64,000 nt of DNA from Callorhinchus milii (GCF_018977255.1 NW_024704742.1:54748001-54812000), one strand, 5' to 3'; shown: positions 6,788-50,814, counted from the stretch's first letter. Numbers and translations are program-made. The notes: a model not told the origin generated them from the sequence alone.

Positions 6788-7860
6788 ACAACCAACCAAC
6801 CAATCAACCAGTCAGGCAACCAGCCAGCCAGGCAACCAGCCAGTCAGGCAGGCAACCAGCCAGCCAGGCAACCAACCAGCCAGCCAGGCAACCAACCAGC
6901 CAGCCAGGCAACCAGCCAGCCAGGCAGGCAACCAGCCAGCCAGGCAACCAACCAGCCAGCCAGGCAACCAACCAGCCAGCCAGGCAACCAGCCAGCCAGC
7001 CAGGCAACCAACCAGTCAGCCAGCCAGGCAACCAACCAGTCAGCCAGCCAGGCAACCAACCAGTCAGTCAGGCAGGCAACCAACCAGCCAGCCAGGCAAC
7101 CAGCCAGCCAGGCAACCAACCAGCCAGGCAACCAACCAGCCAGCCAGGCAACCAACCAACCAGCCGGGCAACCAACCAACCAGCCGGGCAACCAACCAGC
7201 CAGCCGGGCAACCAACCAGCCAGCCGGGCAACCAACCAGCCAGCCGGGCAACCAACCAGCCAGCCAGGCAACCAGCCAGCCAGGCAACCAGCCAGCCAGG
7301 CAACCAGCCAGCCAGGCAACCAGCCAGCCAGGCAACCAGCCAGCCAGCCAGCCAGCCGGGCAACCAACCAGCCAGCCAGGCAACCAGCCAGCCAGCCAGG
7401 CAACCAGCCAGCCAGGCAACCAACCAGCCAGCCAGCCAGGCAACCAGCCAGCCAGCCAGCCAGGCAACCAGCCAGCCAGCCAGCCAGGCAACCAGCCAGC
7501 CAGCCAGCCAGGCAACCAACCAGCCAGCCAGGCAACCAACCAGCCAGCCAGCCAGGCAACCAACCAGCCAGCCAGGCAACCAGCCAGCCAGCCAGGCAAC
7601 CAGCCAGCCAGCCAGGCAACCAGCCAGCCAGGCAACCAGCCAGCCAGCCAGCCAGGCAACCAGCCAGCCAGCCAGCCAGGCAACCAACCAGCCAGCCAGG
7701 CAACCAACCAGCCAGCCAGCCAGGCAACCAACCAGCCAGCCAGGCAACCAACCAGCCAGCCAGGCAACCAGCCAGCCAGCCAGGCAACCAACCAGCCAGC
7801 CAGGCAACTTGCCAGCCAGCCAGGCAACCAGCCAGCCAGGCAACTTGCCAGCCTGCCTGG
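6788..7860. repeat. Complex tetranucleotide satellite (CAAC/CAGC/CAGG units) in FGF20 intron 1
   Basis: About 1.07 kb built almost entirely from CAAC, CAGC, CAGG (and CGGG) tetramers, nearly T-free on the plus strand. Confidence 0.97.
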
Positions 7861-7970
7861 CACCCTGGCTGGCACCCTGGCTGCCACCCTACCTGGCAAA
7901 GCTCCCCATCACAGCATCCGCGCCTCTTGGAGCTAAAACGCTCGCAAAACCACGCGACAAACCCGGGGAG

Positions 7971-7972
<2 letters not shown>

Positions 7973-8019
<47 letters not shown>
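7973..8019. repeat. Poly-G homopolymer (47 nt)
   Basis: Uninterrupted G run. Confidence 0.9.
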
Positions 8020-8020
<1 letters not shown>

Positions 8021-8185
8021 ATCTCGGGTATTTTAACGCGAGGTAGTAAGTGCGGGTCAGCCCCGGGTCGGGCGCGAGACGCTGCAGCGTCGGCCGTTCG
8101 GGTTGAAAGGTGCGCAACTTACAGCCGCCGACGGTGAGCGAACAAATACGGGATTGAAAGGGGGGAAAAAAAAGGCAACAGCTAC

Positions 8186-8459
8186 CGAATGGGCTGTGGT
8201 CTTTCCTGGTGCCCTGGACCGTCCCATCAGGAAGGATCTCCAGGTGAAAGCCGGTCCTGCAGTACAGCTGCCGCCGCCGCAGGATCCCCTGCAGATGCAC
8301 TAAGTCCGTGGCGGTGCTTCGGGATAACCTGCTCTCCGACTGGGCGAGGTGGTCACTCAGCAGCACCGGGGTGTCCGCCGCCGGGAGGAAGAAAGGGGCC
8401 GCGCCGTGGCCGGTGTCCAGACCGCCCAAGTAGCTCCCAACGTCGGCTAAGGGGGCCAT
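8186..8459 (-). CDS. FGF20: Fibroblast growth factor 20, coding exon 1
   Basis: ATG at 8459; [15 protein letters not shown]...[37 protein letters not shown](G), donor G|gtagct. The N-terminus MAPLA.VG..LGGL and adjacency to MICU3 point to FGF20 rather than FGF9/FGF16. Spliced CDS 274+104+246 = 624 nt. Confidence 0.95.
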
Positions 8460-20234: not shown

Positions 20235-20345
20235 CTGTCAGCCTGGCTGTTGGTAACACTCTCACTGCTGAACCCTGTGTGGGTTCAAGCCCCACACAGG
20301 GCCTTTGACCTCACAGTCTAGGCCTTGTCTGACACTTCAGTGGGC
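20235..20345 (+). mobile_element. 5' head of a Deu-domain-type SINE, running directly into the G-rich minisatellite
   Basis: tgtcagcctggct..gtaacactctcac..gggttcaagccccac..ctgacacttcagtg matches the head of the 50815 copy. Confidence 0.65.
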
Positions 20346-21420
20346 AGTGGTGGTGGGGGAGTGAGGGAGTGGGGGTCATGGGGAGGGGGTGTGGGGGTGG
20401 GGCAGTGGGGGTCAGAGGGATGGGGGTGTGAGGATAGGGCAGTGGGGGTTAGGGGGAGGGGGTGTGAGGGTGGGGCAGTGGGGGTGGAGCAGTGGAGGGT
20501 CAGTGGGAGGGGGGCAATGGGTGGGGCAGTGGGGGTCAGTGGAGGGGGGCAATGGGGTGGGGCAGTGGGGGCAGAGGGAAGAGGTGTGGGGGAAGGGGAG
20601 GGGCTGTGGGGAGTGGGGCAGTGGAGGTCAGGAGGAGGGAGTCAGTGGGGGGGTGGGGCAGTGGGGGTCTGGGGGGGTGGGGCAGTGGGGTCAGGGGGAG
20701 GGGGTGTGAGGGGTGGGGCAGTGGGGGTCAGGGGGAGGGGGTGTGAGGGGTGGGGCAGTGGGGGTCAGGGGGAGGGGGTGTTAGGGGTGGGGCAGTGGGG
20801 GTCAGGGGTCAGGGGAGGGGGTGTGAGGGGTGGGGCAGTGGGGTCAGGGGAAGGGGGTGTGAGGGGTGGGGCAGTGGGGTCAGGGGGAGGGGGTGTGAGG
20901 GGTGGGGCAGTGGGGTCAGGGGGAGGGGCAGTGGGGGTCAGGGGGAGGGGTGTGAGGGGTGGGGCAGTGGGGTCAGGGGGAGGGGGTGTGAGGGGTGGGG
21001 CAGTGGGGTCAGGGGGAGGGGGTGTGAGGGGTGGGGCAGTGGGGTCAGGGGGAGGGGTGTGAGGGGTGGGGCAGTGGGGTCAGGGGAGGGGGTGTGAGGG
21101 GGGCAGTGGGGGTCAGGGGCAGGGGGTGTGAGGGGTGGGGCAGTGGGGTCAGGGGGAGGGGGTGTGAGGGGTGGGGCAGTGGGGTCAGGGGAGGGGGTGT
21201 GAGGGGTGGGGCAGTGGGGTCAGGGGGAGGGGTGTGAGGGGTGGGGCAGTGGGGGTCAGGGGGAGGGGGTGTGAGGGGTGGGGCAGTGGGGGTCAGGGGG
21301 AGTGGGTGTGAGGGGTGGGGCAGTGGGGGTCAGGGGGAGGGGGTGTGAGGGGTGGGGCAGTGGGGGTCAGGGGGAGGGGGTGTGAGGGGTGGGGCAGTGG
21401 GGGTCAGGGGTCAGGGGGAG
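20340..21420. repeat. G-rich minisatellite, about 35-37-bp unit GGGGGTGTGAGGGGTGGGGCAGTGGGGTCAGGGGGA
   Basis: Tandem units, degenerate on the left and regular from about 20680 to 21410; five G4-5 tracts per unit. Confidence 0.95.
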
Positions 21421-24749: not shown

Positions 24750-24993
24750 CCTTGGGCAAAACCTTGGGCAAGTTTCCTCACTCCACATGTTTGATAATAA
24801 TCCCTCAAGAAAAAACAATAATAAATTAGTTGCTTCAATCCACGACTGTTTGTGGGGACACTGCTGTGTGGAATTGGCTGCCGCATTTTGCCCACAATTA
24901 TACAGTCAATTCACTTTACAGTATATTCTGTGAAGCGCTTTGAGACGTCTAGAAGACATGAAAAGCGCTATATCAAATGCAAGGATTATTATT
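24750..24993 (+). mobile_element. tRNA-derived SINE, 5'-truncated
   Basis: ttgggcaagtttcctcactccac..gggacactgctgtgtg..aagcgctttgagacgtc..aaatgcaaggattattatt. Confidence 0.85.
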
Positions 24994-26267
24994 AAACAAA
25001 GCAGTCAATTTATACTGAGTAATGACTTTAACATGCAGGGGAGGGGTTTCCTTTAGCCAATCTGTGAAGTCCAGGAGCAATTAGTGAGCTTGATTTGTGG
25101 CAAAAGAGGCAACAGCTTCAAAGAGAGTGACCTATCACTGAGCGCCTGGAGTCTGCTTCACAGTGGGTATTGTCTATTTGTCAAAGCCCCTCAAATAAAG
25201 ATTACGCAGTTAGTGCTGATTGAGTGCTGACTGAGCTAGGATATGGATCTCGAGAACTTTAAAGTGGTTAGCACATCACAAGCCGTCCTGTAAAGATCCT
25301 CCCTCCACACTGAAGGCAGGTACCTGTTGAACAGCTGATGAAGAGAATTGGGATGGCAACTGCTGGAAGACATGGCCTACTCAAGCTCTGCACCTGTAAC
25401 TCGTGGAATCATTAAGCAACGGAACCACTGCTGGATAGGAATGTGTGTTTGAGCTACGGCTGGAGGATGATGAGTGTTCTCGTACATTTTATGCAGAGCT
25501 GTGCTGCTCATCAGTATTCTCGGAGAGAGCTCCTGGTACTTGCTATCCACCTTGTGAGGTTTCAAACCTGTGCATGTCAGATATCAAATGACCAAGAAGC
25601 AACTATCCTCCCTGTGCCACATTTTTTTCCTTTCCCAATCAGGTCCAAAATAGAGCAGAATTGCATAACTTCCTCTCCAAGGTGCTGGAACAAGTTAATA
25701 CATCTTAGCTTTGCTTCTTCCTCTCCCATCACTCCCTCAATGAGTCCCTTCAATGTGGTTTCTTTCCCACCCCAGCATTGCGACTGCCTTAGTTAAAGTC
25801 ACTGATGACATTCTCCACGCCTGCAACCAGGGTTCCTTTTTCTTCCTTGACCTCTCTATGGCCTTCATCACCATTGCCCACTTCATCCCGATCTGCCCTA
25901 CAAGTGATGGGTGAGCTTTTAGCTTTTCCAATCTGGAGTTCTTCTACATTTCTCCCTCCCTTCCCTCCTTCCATACACACATTAAGACCTATTTTTCTGA
26001 CTTGTCTTCCCGATGTGAAAGGCACTATTTCAATATAAGTTGTTATTTTTGATTGTCTTCATATTAGACATCTCAAAACCATTTGATAATGAGTTGTAGT
26101 TGTAAACTAATTTTTGGGTTATCTCTTCCTCTTTGAGTGGCTCCAATTGTAAGTTTACGGTTACTGCTTCCAGCTATATGCTCCAAATTTTGTTTGCTGA
26201 TTACTTTTACGTTAGGTATGTTGAATTATTTTTTATCCTTCAATTACAGTTCATTTCTGTTTTTAGA

Positions 26268-32600: not shown

Positions 32601-33194
32601 ATTCAACTTTTACTGACATATTTTGTCATCTCTTGATGTGGGTGATTCTCCATTTTCCGTAAAATTACTCACCTTAGTTGTGGTATTCTCCCCACCGCCA
32701 GGTTGGTATATTCACTGCCAGAATGAGAATAATTCAAGGTTGCAGCCATGACTGATACTTTCACTGAGAAAGTTGTGACTTTTTGGTCCAAAAGTTGCGG
32801 CCACAGTGTTAAAGTTGCCTTTTTGTTTATGCCAGTTCAAGTACCTCCAGTATTTGCTCCCATTGGCAATCTGCCTGTCCATCAACTTTTCCCACACTCT
32901 CGTTGGTCCATCCTACCTAGTGAAGCATGCGTTCAGTGGGACAGATTCGCTCTTTGTGCCAACCACCTGAAACCCTGGACTGAGGCGGCAAATCTGATTC
33001 CATAGATCCTCCGGATGGTCAAATGGGAGCTTGTACTCACTGTTGTCATTAAAGTTGCAGCAACTATAAAATGTTGCAGGGTGTGTTAAAAGTTGCAGTG
33101 TCTGCAGAGAATCAACCTTCTGTGAAACAGGTTATCTTCCTCGTACTGCTGTAAGCATGACATCACTTGGCAATTTCATTGTAAAGTAGGCTAT

Positions 33195-33985
33195 CTTGGG
33201 CACGTTGAGTAAGTTTCCTTACTCCACATCCCTCTGTTTACCTGTCAGTAATAGGAACCTGGTAGTTAGTCGATTGGCAGATCGCTTTTCCAGGGATACA
33301 ACAACAACAACAACAAGATTCCATTTATAAAGCGCCTTTCACGTCAGGAGGACGTCCCAAGGCGCTTCACAGTTGGGTCATGACCCGAGCAGGGGGGAAA
33401 TGGTCAGGGTGAGGGGAGGGAAGGGAGGGAGCGAGGAGGTGGGAAATGGTCAGGGTGAGGGGAGGTAAGGGAGTGAGCGAGGAGGGGGAAGAGAGTCGAG
33501 AGGGGAGCTGAAGGCACGGTCAAAGAGAAAGGTCTTGAGACCGGCCTTGAAGGAGGAAAGGGAGGAGGCGGCGAAGGCACTGGGGATAGAGTTCCAGAGC
33601 CTGGGGGCTGAGAGGCTGAAGGCCCGACCACCGATGGTAGGGCGGTTGGGGCGAGGGACGTGGAGCAGACCGGAGCCAGAGGAACGGAGGGTACGGGCAG
33701 GTAGGTAGGGGGATAGTAGGTTGGAGAGGTAGGAGGGAGCAAGGCCGTGAATGGCCTTGTAGGTGAGGATGAGGATCTTGAAATCAATAATCACTTCAAA
33801 TATAAATAATAATTTGGTCACTCAATCCATGACTGCTTGTGGGACACTGCTATACACAATTGGCTGCTGTGTTTTGCCACAAATATACAGTCAATTCACT
33901 TTACTGTATATTCTGTGAAGCGCTTTGAGACATATAGAAGATGTGATAAGTCGCTTTATCAAATGTAAGTATCATTATTAAATAA
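33195..33985 (+). mobile_element. tRNA-derived SINE split by a young minus-strand L2 3' fragment (33299-33787)
   Basis: SINE left half ends ...gatcgcttttccagggata and resumes aataatcacttcaaa..ggtcactcaatcc; the insert encodes DFKILILTYKAIHGLAPSYLSNLL...LKTFLFDRAF. Confidence 0.85.
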
Positions 33986-34548
33986 CAACAAAATTACATT
34001 TATATAGTGCCTTTCATGTCCCAAGGCGCTAGTCAATCAATATTTTGGATCCAGGCTGGGGGTCAGGATCAGGGAGGGTGGCGGGCGGGGGGGAAGGGGG
34101 GTGAGCGAAGTCATGGTTGAAGAAGTGGCCAGGGCCTGTTGATTGGAGGGAGAGCGCAGGCTGGTAGGGGGTTTGGAGGTTGCATAAGTAGGCAGGAGCA
34201 ATACCATGGAGGGCTGTGAAGGTGAGGACCAGGATCTTGAACTGTATCCTCTGTGTGATGGGAAGCCAAAGGAGTCAGGTGAGGATGGGGGTGATAGGGC
34301 CACAGGAGAGAACACAGGCTGCAGAGTTCTGGATGATCTACAGCTTATGGAGGGAGTAGTTGGGGAGGCCGACAAGCAGGGAGCGTGTCTCGTCAAGCCT
34401 GGATGTTATGAATGCGTGTATGAGAGTTTCGGCGTCCTGCGGTGTGAGACCTCTGGAGTTGGGGTGAAGTTGCGGAGGTGGGGGAAGGCAGAGCGGGTTG
34501 GGGCACAGATGTGGGGTATAAATTTCTATATATATATATATATATATT

Positions 34549-35349
34549 TCTGAAGGAGAATTGAAGGAGATCTGCTACAAGCATCCATGGGTCTGAAATA
34601 CATCCACAATTCTGGCCTGGTCCATATGGACGTGAAGCCGAGCAATATTTTCATTTGTTAAAAAATGATTGATGCTAAGTCTGGATGCTTGGAAGAAGAC
34701 AGTGATATTGACGAGGATGGTGGTTTGAACACAAATATGCAAAATAGGTGACCTGGGGCATGTGACCTCAAATTCAAATCCCCAAGTGGAGGAAGGAGAC
34801 TGCCGCTTCTTAGCCCATGAGATATTACAAGAGGACTATTCTAATTTGCCCAAAGCGGATATTTTTGCCCTGAGTCTGACCATCACCCTGGCTGCAGGAG
34901 TGGAAAGACTGCCTCACAATGACATGGCCTGGCATTACATCAGAAAAGGCAACCTTCCCACAATACCTTTGCAGTTGTCACATGAATTTTGCAGTCTACT
35001 GAAGTTGATGGTTCATCCAAATCCAACTGAGAGGCCTTCAGCAGCTGCCCTGACCAAACCCCCACACTTCGCAGAATGCTGGGAAAATCAGCAGCACAGG
35101 TAGAACGCTTCAGGACTGCCATGTTGGAAAGGGAGCTGATGAAAGCTCGGCTGTCGCAGGTCTTCCCTCGGACAGACCTCACAGAAGTCCTCCACCCTTG
35201 GAAGCAGGACCTCCTGCCAGGGAAGAAGAACCAACTGTTGGTGGGAGGCAGAAGCAATCGGTCAGTGAGCTTCAACTGTGGTGGCTACTCAAGCCATCTC
35301 TGTGCAATGCTCTCAGGAAAGACTTGAACCTGATGAACCAGCTTACTCC
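34549..35349 (+). pseudogene. WEE2: Processed pseudogene of a Wee1-family kinase, WEE2-like (5'-truncated; kinase C-lobe, C-terminal tail and short 3' UTR)
   Basis: Intronless GLKYIHNSGLVHMDVKPSNIFIC*...[39 protein letters not shown]...RPSAAAL...LVGGRSNRSVSFNCGGY. Premature TAA at 34659-34661; frameshifts near 34572, 34740 and 35060. Confidence 0.92.
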
Positions 35350-35546
35350 AATCCCCCCAAAACAAAAAATAATAAATTGGTCATTTTCAATCCACGACTG
35401 TTTGTGGGACACTGCTGTGTGCAATTGGCTGCCACGTTTCGCCCACAAATATACAGTCAATTCACTTTAGAGTCTATTCTGTGAAGCGCTTTGAGACGTC
35501 GAGATGACATGAAAAGCGCTATATCAAATGCAAGGATTATTATTAT
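35350..35546 (+). mobile_element. SINE 3' half fused to the WEE2 retrocopy
   Basis: aatccccccaaaa..caatccacgactgtttgtgggacactgctgtgtgcaattggctgcc..AGCGCTTT(n20)AAAGCGCT..aaatgcaaggattattatta. Confidence 0.9.
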
Positions 35547-37099
35547 TATAAAGGATAGTTGAGGGTCAAACAAAATGCCAAGGGTCCGGACTGGCTTAGT
35601 GGGGTGAAGTGTGCAACCATGGATGGTGATGCTGTCAGCGACAGGTGTGGAGGCGCTGACCGGAGCCAATCAGGAGAGCCTCTGTCTTGTTGACATTCAA
35701 CTGAAGAAATTGGCTCCCATCCAGGACTTGATGTCTGACATAGTCTTAGGATAGCAGTGGTCCTGGAGTAGAGGGTGGAGGCTGAGAGATAGTTGGGTGT
35801 CATTGGCATACATGTGGAAGTTGACGCTGTGGATGATGTCACCAAGAGGGAGCATATAGAAGAGAGGACCAAGGCCAGACCCCTGAGGAATCCTGCACGA
35901 GATGGTCCAGGGGCTAGAGGAGAAACCACTTGTGGAGATGGCGTGAGAGGTACGATCTGAACAATTCAAGGACAGGACCATGAAGGTTGAGGTGAGAGGA
36001 GGCGGTGGGGGAGGATAGAGATGTCAACGGTATTGATGGTGTCAGTTCAAGTACCTACAATATGTGGTCTCATTGGACCAATAATTGGTGAGCATTGTTG
36101 GAATACAGTAGTTGATAGAGTGGGCATTCTAGTTTGCTTTTAAGAGTAGTCCAGCCAACTTCCTGCTGCTTGTCCAGTTAGAATCATCCTATCAATTAGG
36201 ATTTTGAAATGCAGGGTTTACACGTTTGTGTGTCTTGAGTATCGTATGTCTGCGTATCTACGTGTTTATCATTGAGAAAACAACTGTTTTGTACAGCAGG
36301 TGTTCTTCATTGTTTATTTGTTTAAAACATGTGCATGGTATGATAACAATGGAGCTTCACAATGCTTCTCCAGATTCGGTACCTCTCTTACAAATAGTAG
36401 ATTTGCCTAGGCCTATGTTCTTTGTATGCAGAGGTTCAAATATAAAGTTAATCATCCAACTTCACCAGTTGGAGCACATTGGACAATACCAAAGCTGGGC
36501 CTTTCCTCTTTTGTCCTCTTTCCTTTTTCGTCCAGTTTTTCTCTACTAGAAATCTTCAGCATATGTTTTATGATACATCTTTCTTGTTCTGAGTTACAGT
36601 TGTCTTGAATTACATGTGTTGTAATGTAAATATAGAATCGTACAAGCAGAGTTTGTGGTGATGGGGTGGGTGAGAGAAGAAAGGAGGTTCTTAGGTTAAC
36701 ATCCTGTTGGATAGTTTCCTACGAGGAGGAGGTGGATTAGAATGAAGGCATAGCTGAGTGCTGTGATCTTGCCAGGTTTTATGTGCTGGATGTGTTTACA
36801 ATAAGAAGATTTAGTATTTGGTGATGAGGTTGAAAGTTTTGGAGGAGAGATTTATTAAAGGTTGAGGTTTCATTTTGATATATGAATTTTGACAGCTGCA
36901 GTTCAAGTTAAATCCAAGTATTCAGTTTACTGATTTCTGCAATAGATATGAGTCGGGTGATTTGTTTTCATTGTAATTTTAATGTATGGAACATTGAAGG
37001 CAAATTCGGATTTAGGTAGGTCCCTATCAAAGTCATTTGCAAATGTTTGTACTGTCTATGGAGATTTTCTTGACATTGAGGATTGGCTCATAATTGATG

Positions 37100-47917: not shown

Positions 47918-48740
47918 AGCAGGTTGGAGAGGTAGGAGGTGGCAAGACCATGGAGGGTCTTGAAGGTGAGGATGAGAGTTTTGAACTCGATCCACTGACG
48001 GACGGGGAGCCAGTAGAGCCAGGCAAGGGTGGGTGAAATGGGGTCACGGAGCCTGGTGTGGGAGAGGGCACGAGCTGCAGAGTTCTGGATGATCTGCAAC
48101 TTGTGCTGGGAAGAGTTAGGAGGGCCGACAAGCAGGGCGTTAGCATAGACGAGCCTGGATGTATTGTAGGCTCGCATGAGGGTTTTGGCTGCCTTTGGGG
48201 TGAGGCAGTGGCTGAGTCAGCAATGTTGTGGGAGTGGGGGAAGGCAGAGTGGGTCATGGCATGGATGTGAGGCAGAAAGGACAGTTGAGGGTCGAACAAG
48301 CCAGGTTCCTGACTGGCTTAGTGAGGTGGAGTGTGCATCTGTTGATGCTGATGCTGCCATGCCTGAAGTATGGAGGGAGTTATGGGAGATGAAATGGTGA
48401 TCTGAGATGGCTTTATCGATGATAGTGATATCCGAGACATTGAGACCCCGGGTAATCACTTGGTCGAGTGGATGGCCGAGTAAATGTGAGGGAGAGGTTG
48501 TGCGAAGAGAAGTCGGTGGAGATAGAGCAAGAGAGGGTAAAGTGCAGGTTGAAGTTGCTTAGAATTTGGAGGCATTCAGAACAGAGGCAGAGAGAAGCTA
48601 GGAGGGTGGAGATATCAGAGATGAGGCTGGGGGAGGGTTTAGCGGGATGATAAATCAGGAGAATTTTGAGGGAAATATTGGAAGAATGATAGAGGGTAAG
48701 CTTCTCGAAGGAGGAGAATGAGCTGGAGGAGTAGGGGAAT
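47918..48740 (-). mobile_element. L2 fragments (internally deleted; RT C-terminus and endonuclease-region pieces)
   Basis: KLQIIQNSAARAL..WLPVRQWIEFKTLILTFK; ISDHHFIS. Confidence 0.8.
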
Positions 48741-48882: not shown

Positions 48883-49272
48883 GGCGTCCTGTAGCTCAGT
48901 GGTTAGAGCACTCGCCTCGCAAGAGAGAGGACATGGGTTCGATTCCCAGGCGGATCAGGGCTAAATGTTGGGCAAGTTTCCTTACTCCACACACATTCAC
49001 GCACGCCTCTGTTTACCTAGTAGTAAGTAGGAACCCAGTTGTTAGTCGATTGGCGGATCTCTTTTCAGGGGGTAATGATTCCTTCCAAAAAAATTAATAA
49101 TAAATTTTGGTCACTCAATCCACAACTGTTTGTGGGACACTGCTGTGTGCAATTGGCTGCTGCGTTTTGCCAAACAAAAGTATTCACTTTACAGTGTATC
49201 CTGTGAAGTGCTTTGAGATATCTCGAAGATGTGATAAGCCGCTATATCAAATGCAAGGATTATTATTATTAT
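48883..49272 (+). mobile_element. Full-length tRNA(Ala-like)-derived SINE, about 390 bp, (ATT)n tail
   Basis: A box TAGCTCAGTGG, B box GGTTCGATTCC, pseudo-anticodon loop ctCGCaa, then core and 3' region shared with more than 10 copies in the window. Confidence 0.92.
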
Positions 49273-50814
49273 AGAACAATTGACTGTGGAAAAAATAGCC
49301 AGAAGAGGTGCAAGAAATATTAGTAGTTAATGTTATAAGCTAGATTGCTCTTTTGAGGGATTTGTTCAGGTTTGGACTTTTTAATATCTTAAATATTCTA
49401 ATTTTTCTGACCTGAATTTTTTTAAAAAAATGAAAAAGCTAATGTTAAATGGTGTACTTAGTCTGATTATTTTATCTTTCAGTCATTATAAATAGTGAAG
49501 TAAAATATTTGGTTTTTTAACTTGGTGAACGTAAAAACATTTTACACCAAACTCTTTCCAGCAGGCAAGTGATGTATATAATGCCGTTCTGATACTTCTT
49601 GACTTCTATATTTTTGTATGCTTTATGTCTCAGGTTTAAAATCACGTAGTTTGTTGTATAAATGACTTTAAATTAAATTGTAAAGCTCTTAAGTATTCCA
49701 TTACCACCACCATCATGGAAACAATATAACTTTGTACAAGACATTTTATGTATTTAGATAGAAATAAAACGAGGTTTACATGGGATTTTGCGTTAATACT
49801 TTATCCAAATTATTGTTTTTATCTACCAAGATAAAAACCTAAACAATACCCCATTGATTGCAATTGCCCATCATCAGTATACTTCACACAATTACCTTTA
49901 CTAAGTACACAACTGCAGTCTTTTTATGACCAGCACATAAAGCCGTAAATTTCATTAAACCATTACATCATATCTTTGAGTAAAGGCACTTCGGGCTTCT
50001 TAACTGGCGAACAACAATAGTGGTTAAAACTGCGTACTACTGTGTGGGAAACCACCATTACATGCTCAAGGAATGTATTATCCTTCCTAGCCTCACAAAT
50101 CTGGTTTTGTTCATTAAATATTCAGAAGTATTTTCCAATTATTTTGTTTCGGACTTTCTAAATAATATGCCATTCCTCAATTATATTAAATACCTATCAT
50201 GTACTATGTAATGATTAATTTTTTTGAGGACAGGAAGGGGTGAACAATTAGTCATTAAAAATAACTCCTGCCAGACTACTAAACAAACCATTCCCATATT
50301 GATAAATAATACCCAAACATTTTTTTTAATTCAAAGTTTAGCATTCAATTCTCTTACATCAGGAAAGGGATGAAGAAACAGTTTTCATCAAAGTAAGGGG
50401 TATTGTTTGATTAACACGGCTGAGTCACATGTAACACAACCATAGAAATGTATGACATAGTAGGAGGCATTTGACCAACTTAGAGTTTGTTTCCCTGCCA
50501 ATGACGCAATCTACCCTAATCCCAATTCCTTGCTTTTTCCCATATCCTCTAATACCTTTCTTCTGCATGTGGCTATCCAATTATATTTTAAATGCACAAA
50601 TTGAGTCTGCTCCCAACAGCCAACCCATGCTAGCTAAAGTGTAAAGCTCCCTCTATGTTGGTCCAATACTGAGTTAATAACTTCAGAAATGGGACCTATT
50701 TCGGACCATTGTGATATCTTCATTTATGATACCAGTATCCTTGCAATGTTGCCAATCATTGTTGAATGACTGACAGTTCTGGGCTATGAACCTGCATCTG
50801 TTAGAAACAAGATT

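Follow-up and report, generated by a model that had tools for sequence, protein, structure and literature searches.

We analyzed a 64,000-nucleotide (nt) window of the elephant shark genome (Callorhinchus milii, GCF_018977255.1, NW_024704742.1:54748001-54812000; positions count from its first letter) and found that the block at 34523-35546 joins a copy of WEE2 messenger RNA (mRNA) to the 3′ part of a short interspersed element (SINE). The block interrupts an old minus-strand L2 long interspersed element (LINE) ~26 kb upstream of FGF20. It is probable that a SINE resident in the 3′ untranslated region (UTR) of the parental WEE2 gene served as the handle for L2, and that it did so repeatedly.

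The limits of the insertion are set by the host element, whose left flank (34020-34522, minus strand) comes from the C-terminal side of ORF2 and has 69-77% blastn identity to L2 copies elsewhere in the window, and whose right flank (35547-36030, minus strand) is 81.8% identical to 48276-48359 and 67-69% identical to other L2 copies. Read on the plus strand, the left flank ends in TATAAA (34517-34522), itself host L2 sequence, and the right flank begins with TATAAA (35547-35552). When the flanks are rejoined with a single TATAAA, the junction is gap-free against the uninterrupted L2 at 48200-48360, the ORF2 frame is open across the site, and host length and frame are restored. The TATAAA repeats and the colinear uninterrupted copy are thus present as the original prediction, made from the window by itself, had described them. 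The same prediction placed 6-bp direct repeats around one block; its borders hold, and the length of the duplication is refined here. Other L2 copies read TAGAGA, TAGAAA or CAGAAA at the TATAAA position, and in all four sequencing runs such copies bridge 34498 to 35550/35552 with an equal number of letters. This equal-length bridging argues that no target sequence was deleted and that the duplication is at least AAA and at most TATAAA. The terminal repeat of the block, (ATT)4 AT (35536-35549, plus strand), overlaps the right-hand copy with its final TAT, and because that TAT doubles as the end of the (ATT)n tail, we put the target-site duplication (TSD) at 3-6 bp and the 3′ microhomology at 3 nt. 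An empty allele was sought in runs X1 and X4 and none was shown, the joints that skip the block bearing the letters of other L2 copies; each of these two runs contains a contig identical to the window copy at 34699-34803.

At its 5′ end the block carries 24 extra nucleotides, TTTC(TA)10 (34523-34546, plus strand), so that the predicted (TA)n filler is there and starts in addition with TTTC. The filler's TTTCT has the same letters as the start of the complementary DNA (cDNA; 34547-34549) and its TATA resembles the target, from which letters the filler may have been copied. In ZfL2 inserts, TSDs are ~5 bp, against ~15 bp for L1, and the flanks are often the source of the extra 5′ nucleotides (PMC4245944), and 3′ microhomology is found in ~80% of ZfL2-2 copies (PMC2666801). 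The short TSD, 3′ microhomology and 5′ extra nucleotides of the block reproduce this signature, which, with one duplication and a restored host frame, supports the predicted single insertion of L2 type.

The coding part of the block (34547-35291, plus strand) is a disabled, 5′-truncated copy of WEE2-A covering codons ~312-566 and a mutated stop, as aligned with both protein P0001 (tblastn) and contig record 17 of run X5. Among 732 homologues the closest was P0001, WEE2-A of C. milii itself, at 96% identity over the kinase stretch, with sharks at 74-82%; tblastn of P0001 residues 320-566 returned three segments at 93, 96 and 90% identity. The Protein Data Bank (PDB) alone drew no distinction between WEE2 and WEE1 (147.3 vs. 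146.6 bits), and the chondrichthyan homologues settled the assignment as WEE2. In the block Pfam identified nothing but Pkinase, and Rfam gave 0 matches over 33000-37000. The copy has a premature TAA at 34659 and deletions of 1, 5, 1 and 18 nt, three of which shift the frame, the 18-nt deletion coming in addition; it has also lost its stop codon, the parental TGA reading TCA at 35289-35291. It is dead and decayed, with no evident function. P0001 lies on a 69.3-Mb contig and the block on a piece of at least 81.9 Mb, which would be different scaffolds if the assembly is the same.

Record 17 of run X5 is a 1,700-nt contig of depth 75 that aligns to 34558-35361 (~804 letters) with 19 differing letters and 25 gap letters; X5, like X6, is classed as RNA by a guess of run type only. 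Since the contig bears the P0001 state at every lesion and at the listed amino-acid differences, we regard it as a parent-like message. The differences listed number 16 of the 19: nine have an in-frame effect, altering or creating a residue or stop, two fall at frame breaks and five are silent. At four of the five silent positions the window letter dominates DNA depth, so that the change there looks parent-side. Changes on the side of the copy amount to 12-15 in ~804 letters, which by the clock of 1.0-1.1e-3 per million years (Myr) in PMC5499810 corresponds roughly to a crude age of 14-19 Myr. The block's SINE diverges by 8.0% (13/162) from a majority line of 11 SINE copies in the window, a value left unused for dating because that line shows CpG decay and combines several subfamilies.

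The copy is colinear with spliced message, X5 record 17 and P0001 aligning over 34558-35361 with only four small deletions, and relative to the parent transcript and protein the predicted intronless cDNA is upheld. Human WEE2 has 12 exons, of which exon 9 encodes residues 408-464 (PMC13359739); with residue numbering checked on the 5vdk alignment, the borders of this exon, used as a proxy, map to contiguous AG-ending codons in the copy (GAG|GAC at 34833/4 and AAG|TTG at 35004/5). The copied region corresponds to human exons 6-12 (6-11 from the mutation table of PMC13359739, 12 taken as the last). Intron loss is therefore likely, as judged by the human exon 9 proxy only. Loose intron ends were absent among the matches listed for the read contigs (24, with 1,543 more, in which SINE rows swamp the others). 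The departure of the old gene model P0121 from P0001 at RSNR was considered as evidence of an intron and rejected, the spliced sequence itself having GT there. The block also shows the 5′ truncation, intact 3′ end and TSD of a retrocopy.

Downstream of the mutated stop at 35289-35291 lie 58 nt of WEE2 3′ UTR (35292-35349, plus strand), covered by X5 record 17 and close to the ~60 nt anticipated. The UTR is followed by an A-rich stretch (35350-35378, plus strand; 35350-35361 covered by the X5 contig) that is an internal linker of the SINE and not a poly(A) tail: its pattern, AATCCC, an A run and TAATAAAT, is found in five other SINE copies in the window. Because 35342-35350 also matches a 9-mer of the SINE body, CTTACTCCA, the SINE may begin 8 nt earlier. 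No poly(A) was found after the stop, in line with the prediction; the longest A run there is 6 nt and lies inside the linker, as does the sole AATAAA after the stop (35371-35376).

The remainder (35379-35546, plus strand) is the 3′ part of the dominant SINE of the window, 89.8% identical to the copy at 24799-24994, with a stem-loop at 35485-35520 and an L2-like tail. The tail shares 52 of 67 letters with an L2 3′ end at 33300-33400, a value close to the 78.6% similarity published for CmiSINE and L2-2_CM (PMC5499810). CmiSINE is described as having a tRNA-Ala head, a CORE body and this L2-like tail (PMC5499810); head and body are absent from the 5′-truncated block. The repeat occurs in full at 48886-49273, where its head is tRNA-Ala-like. 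The SINE part likely behaves as the 3′ part of CmiSINE (SINE2-1_CM / SINE2B-1_CM) rather than as a whole member, an assignment based on the published description. The stem AGCGCTTT...AAAGCGCT is predicted in both minimum-free-energy and centroid structures. Of the predicted SINE 3′ half with stem-loop and (ATT)n, then, all parts are present, the stem as a prediction whose stability does not exceed that of shuffled sequences.

The SINE at 24754-24994, of the same subfamily as that of the block, has a short duplication at its 5′ end and an internal deletion by which the linker directly follows a CORE-like body; given the 9-mer at 35342-35350, the block may carry a similar deletion. At 33300-33980, one SINE lies tail to tail with the 3′ end of an L2 that has a (GTT)n tail and a strong hairpin (z -4.32); a second SINE, truncated and likewise starting near the A-rich linker, cuts this L2 on the 5′ side. 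Since the linker contains AATAAA, a SINE lying in sense within a UTR might itself provide a polyadenylation signal ahead of its tail, in competition with its function as a handle.

The original prediction had left open whether the SINE was resident in the WEE2 3′ UTR or was joined to it by template switching, and the contigs favor the resident SINE and speak against the switch. X5 record 17 passes the end of the unique UTR and aligns through 35361, that is, 12 nt in register into the SINE linker. Those 12 nt match six other SINE linkers better than do 771 of 777 control 12-mers taken from the WEE2 part. The contig ends 14 letters beyond 35361, and as the alignment halts before one more A, this trailing sequence does not look like plain poly(A). 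Moreover, a contig of run X4 (depth ~10, the level of a single copy) has five UTR letters absent from both the window and X5, and spans ~35286-35377 as worked out from its from_end values. Its private letters and span suggest that another, more diverged locus has the same WEE2-SINE junction.

Further copies of WEE2 are indicated by three distinct X1 contigs that overlap 34593-34671 with 2, 8 and 12 differences, and by contig depths of 47-82 where sequence is shared vs. 10-14 where it is copy-specific, although summed contig depth does not equal copy number. C. milii has two more degenerate gene models, P0002/P0122 and P0017, whose 5′ starting points are not the same; against P0001 they show 20/243 and 12/159 differing residues, compared with 9/237 for the window copy. 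At residues 461, 473 and 491 the two models agree in a state that parent and window copy lack, and at residues 524 and 539 P0002 and most of the DNA depth differ whereas the window copy equals the parent. These five parent-matching residues indicate that the window copy arose late from the parent. Insertion has likely recurred many times from the parent gene, to judge by these comparisons, with the window copy a late instance. Public C. milii entries A0A4W3J5Y7, A0A4W3IGG5 and A0A4W3I337 (UniRef; P0002/P0122 and P0017) are apparently models built over degenerate WEE2 copies, and one of them bears the name WEE2.

A template switch, in which reverse transcriptase copying a free SINE RNA jumped to WEE2 mRNA at the AATCCCCCCAAA microhomology in the manner of U6/L1 chimeras, would account for a parent-like contig that displays just 12 nt of SINE-like sequence before 14 unaligned letters, and chimeric junctions at A/T-rich tracts are known (PMC4859970). 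We consider it improbable: the second, diverged copy has an identical junction, and the window copy and the older copies came from the parent separately, so that the jump would need to have struck one and the same nucleotide more than once. Furthermore, a depth-75 contig with no upstream AATAAA that ends ~26 nt into the linker is what would be expected of an assembly entering a high-copy repeat. Two separate insertions, an ordinary poly(A) retrocopy and a truncated SINE that later entered its A tail, could explain the A-rich junction, and 5′-truncated SINEs beginning near the linker do occur in the window (33780 and 15100). However, the A run is the SINE's own linker, with the SINE-type AATCCC before it, a single duplication encloses the WEE2 and SINE parts, no polyadenylation signal lies upstream, and the junction is common to the parent-like transcript and another copy, all of which make this sequence of events extremely improbable.

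Descent from a copy, rather than from the gene, would require that an early WEE2-SINE chimera became a transcribed source of the window locus. A leucine at residue 549 (R549L) shared with P0002, and four synonymous C letters shared with most of the DNA depth against X5, could be read in this way. Yet the five residues above track today's parent rather than the more diverged copies, the four synonymous differences fit parent-side changes or polymorphism, and R549L is best read as parallel because the parent letter stands at 35236 in contigs from each of the four runs; we hold such descent to be very improbable. Finally, the resident SINE might have offered a relaxed enzyme, whether L1-like or of another kind, nothing more than an AT-rich place to prime, with the stem-loop idle and copy number reflecting oocyte abundance. 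Sequence cannot name the enzyme, the hairpin of the block is weak (z -0.71), and WEE2 is abundant in oocytes. Against this, the end of the block coincides exactly with the ends of SINE copies in the window, its short TSD, microhomology and 5′ extra nucleotides fit L2 and not L1, and poly(A) is absent, so we find relaxed priming improbable as well.

Given a resident SINE recognized by L2, the following course of events can be proposed. A truncated CmiSINE would have inserted in sense 58 nt behind the WEE2 stop, and the start of its linker is seen at the same place in the parent-like transcript, which documents this step in part. Oocyte transcripts reading past the linker AATAAA would then have included a tail that L2 recognizes; WEE2 is transcribed in oocytes (PMC13359739), and SINEs are on record in C. 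milii 3′ UTRs, with 104 mRNA matches for CmiSINE (PMC5499810). L2 ORF2 protein would have bound the SINE stem-loop within the oocyte mRNA, and the enzyme was presumably an L2-family reverse transcriptase, since the block ends in a tail with 3′ homology to the L2 end and short terminal repeats. From the junction, it appears that a nick was made at TATAAA in the old L2 and that the 3′ end of the target paired with (AUU)n over TAT and primed there, not at poly(A). Copying, as the block shows, ran ~1.0 kb through the SINE, UTR and coding sequence and halted near codon 312. The 5′ end was joined with the 24 extra nucleotides and the 3-6 bp duplication, both visible in the structure, with the origin of the former as suggested above. 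The copy then decayed, as its lesions attest.

Several observations count against a resident SINE acting as an L2 handle. The parent SINE is seen over 12 nt only (20 if it includes the 9-mer at 35342), the final 14 letters of X5 record 17 are unaligned, and this contig counts as RNA by the guess noted above. On the SINE side the X4 contig extends for 28 letters, fewer than the 31 set as the rule for bridging. The SINE part differs from its relatives at ~7/160 positions (counted by eye) and the coding part from the parent at 15/804, an approximately twofold excess that points toward a resident SINE and is not significant (Fisher p 0.075). R549L is common to the window copy and P0002 and is not found in the parent, and that P0002 and P0017, known as protein models, are SINE-tailed retrocopies is conjectural. 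The stem-loop of the block is no more stable than shuffles (z -0.71, with 46 of 200 folding equally well), compared with z -2.66 for a sister SINE copy and z -4.32 for the neighbouring L2 tail, and L2 recognition requires a cognate loop (PMC4176376). The linker AATAAA, moreover, could end many transcripts before the stem-loop.

Elsewhere in the window, the first coding exon of FGF20 (8160-8456, minus strand) starts MAPLADVG and has FGF20 as its best PDB match (E 7.5e-27). At 6792-8019, in the first intron of FGF20, degenerate (CCAG/CCAA)n repeats extend over 1 kb and give way to 47 nt of G; the array has long stop-free frames in all six phases and draws spurious Pfam PT-repeat matches. A G-rich tandem array with a period of ~37 nt occupies 20342-21418, its younger part comprising 13.9 copies at 94% match.

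In reviews, L1 is held responsible for vertebrate mRNA retrocopies, and their scarcity in L1-poor genomes is put down to stringent tail recognition (PMC5470649, PMC3747384), and sequence-specific elements such as CR1 are held to limit which cellular RNAs hitchhike (PMC5470649). This L1-centred account leaves open what made the retrocopies that are present in L1-poor genomes, to which a SINE handle residing in a UTR is a concrete answer; it predicts retrocopies that end at SINE tails and derive from genes with sense SINEs near the stop. We advance, tentatively and at somewhat less than even confidence, the broader proposal that in genomes with stringent L2 elements a sense SINE tail in the 3′ UTR licenses retroposition of the mRNA. 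The gene would thereby become a long-lived source, and the choice of genes for duplication would be set by the SINEs in their UTRs rather than by poly(A) or abundance alone, with elephant shark WEE2 as a multi-copy example. If this is true, the WEE2 copies provide a dated fossil series of a maternal meiotic kinase. By title or opening of abstract, the searched literature held no precedent for SINE-tail-driven mRNA retrocopies; many subscription papers lay beyond reach, and absence from print is not established by this search.

Among known systems, the block is like the stringent L2-clade mobilization of SINEs (CmiSINE/SacSINE1-CM with L2-2_CM, PMC5499810; ZfL2-1/ZfL2-2, PMC4176376) in its kind of tail, end point and junctions. 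In that process, however, the RNA copied is a Pol III SINE transcript, whereas the template of the block was a spliced, protein-coding Pol II mRNA that probably had the SINE in its UTR. The available text of PMC5499810 treats 3′ UTR SINEs as possible microRNA targets, not as handles for retroposition. With template-switch chimeras (U6/L1, and the platypus snoRNA-RTE cited in PMC5499810) the block has in common a cellular RNA 5′ of a retroelement tail within one TSD. Such chimeras are recognized by a junction absent from the parent RNA, but the parent-like contig enters the linker for 12 nt and another copy shares the junction; the fusion thus apparently pre-exists in the parent transcript, recurs at one junction, and is apparently copied from the gene rather than from a chimeric source element.

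The block shares with L1 processed pseudogenes (PMC3747384, PMC5470649, PMC4859970) an intron-free, 5′-truncated, 3′-anchored and disabled structure, a TSD and origin from a germ-line transcript. It departs from them in having no poly(A), a TSD of 3-6 bp vs. ~15, and an end at the (ATT)n tail of a SINE, and is therefore a retrocopy in the broad sense that lacks two defining features of an L1 processed pseudogene, poly(A) and a long TSD. The 5′ transduction by SVA and LINE-1 elements, as in SVA_F1 with the MAST2 exon (PMC4859970), offers a further parallel, in that a host promoter reads through a resident element and upstream exons are retrotransposed repeatedly, as proposed for the block. SVA elements depend on L1 and poly(A) and are joined to host exons by splicing or upstream initiation, whereas in the block a truncated SINE would lie in the UTR of a normal mRNA and likely brings its own recognition signal.

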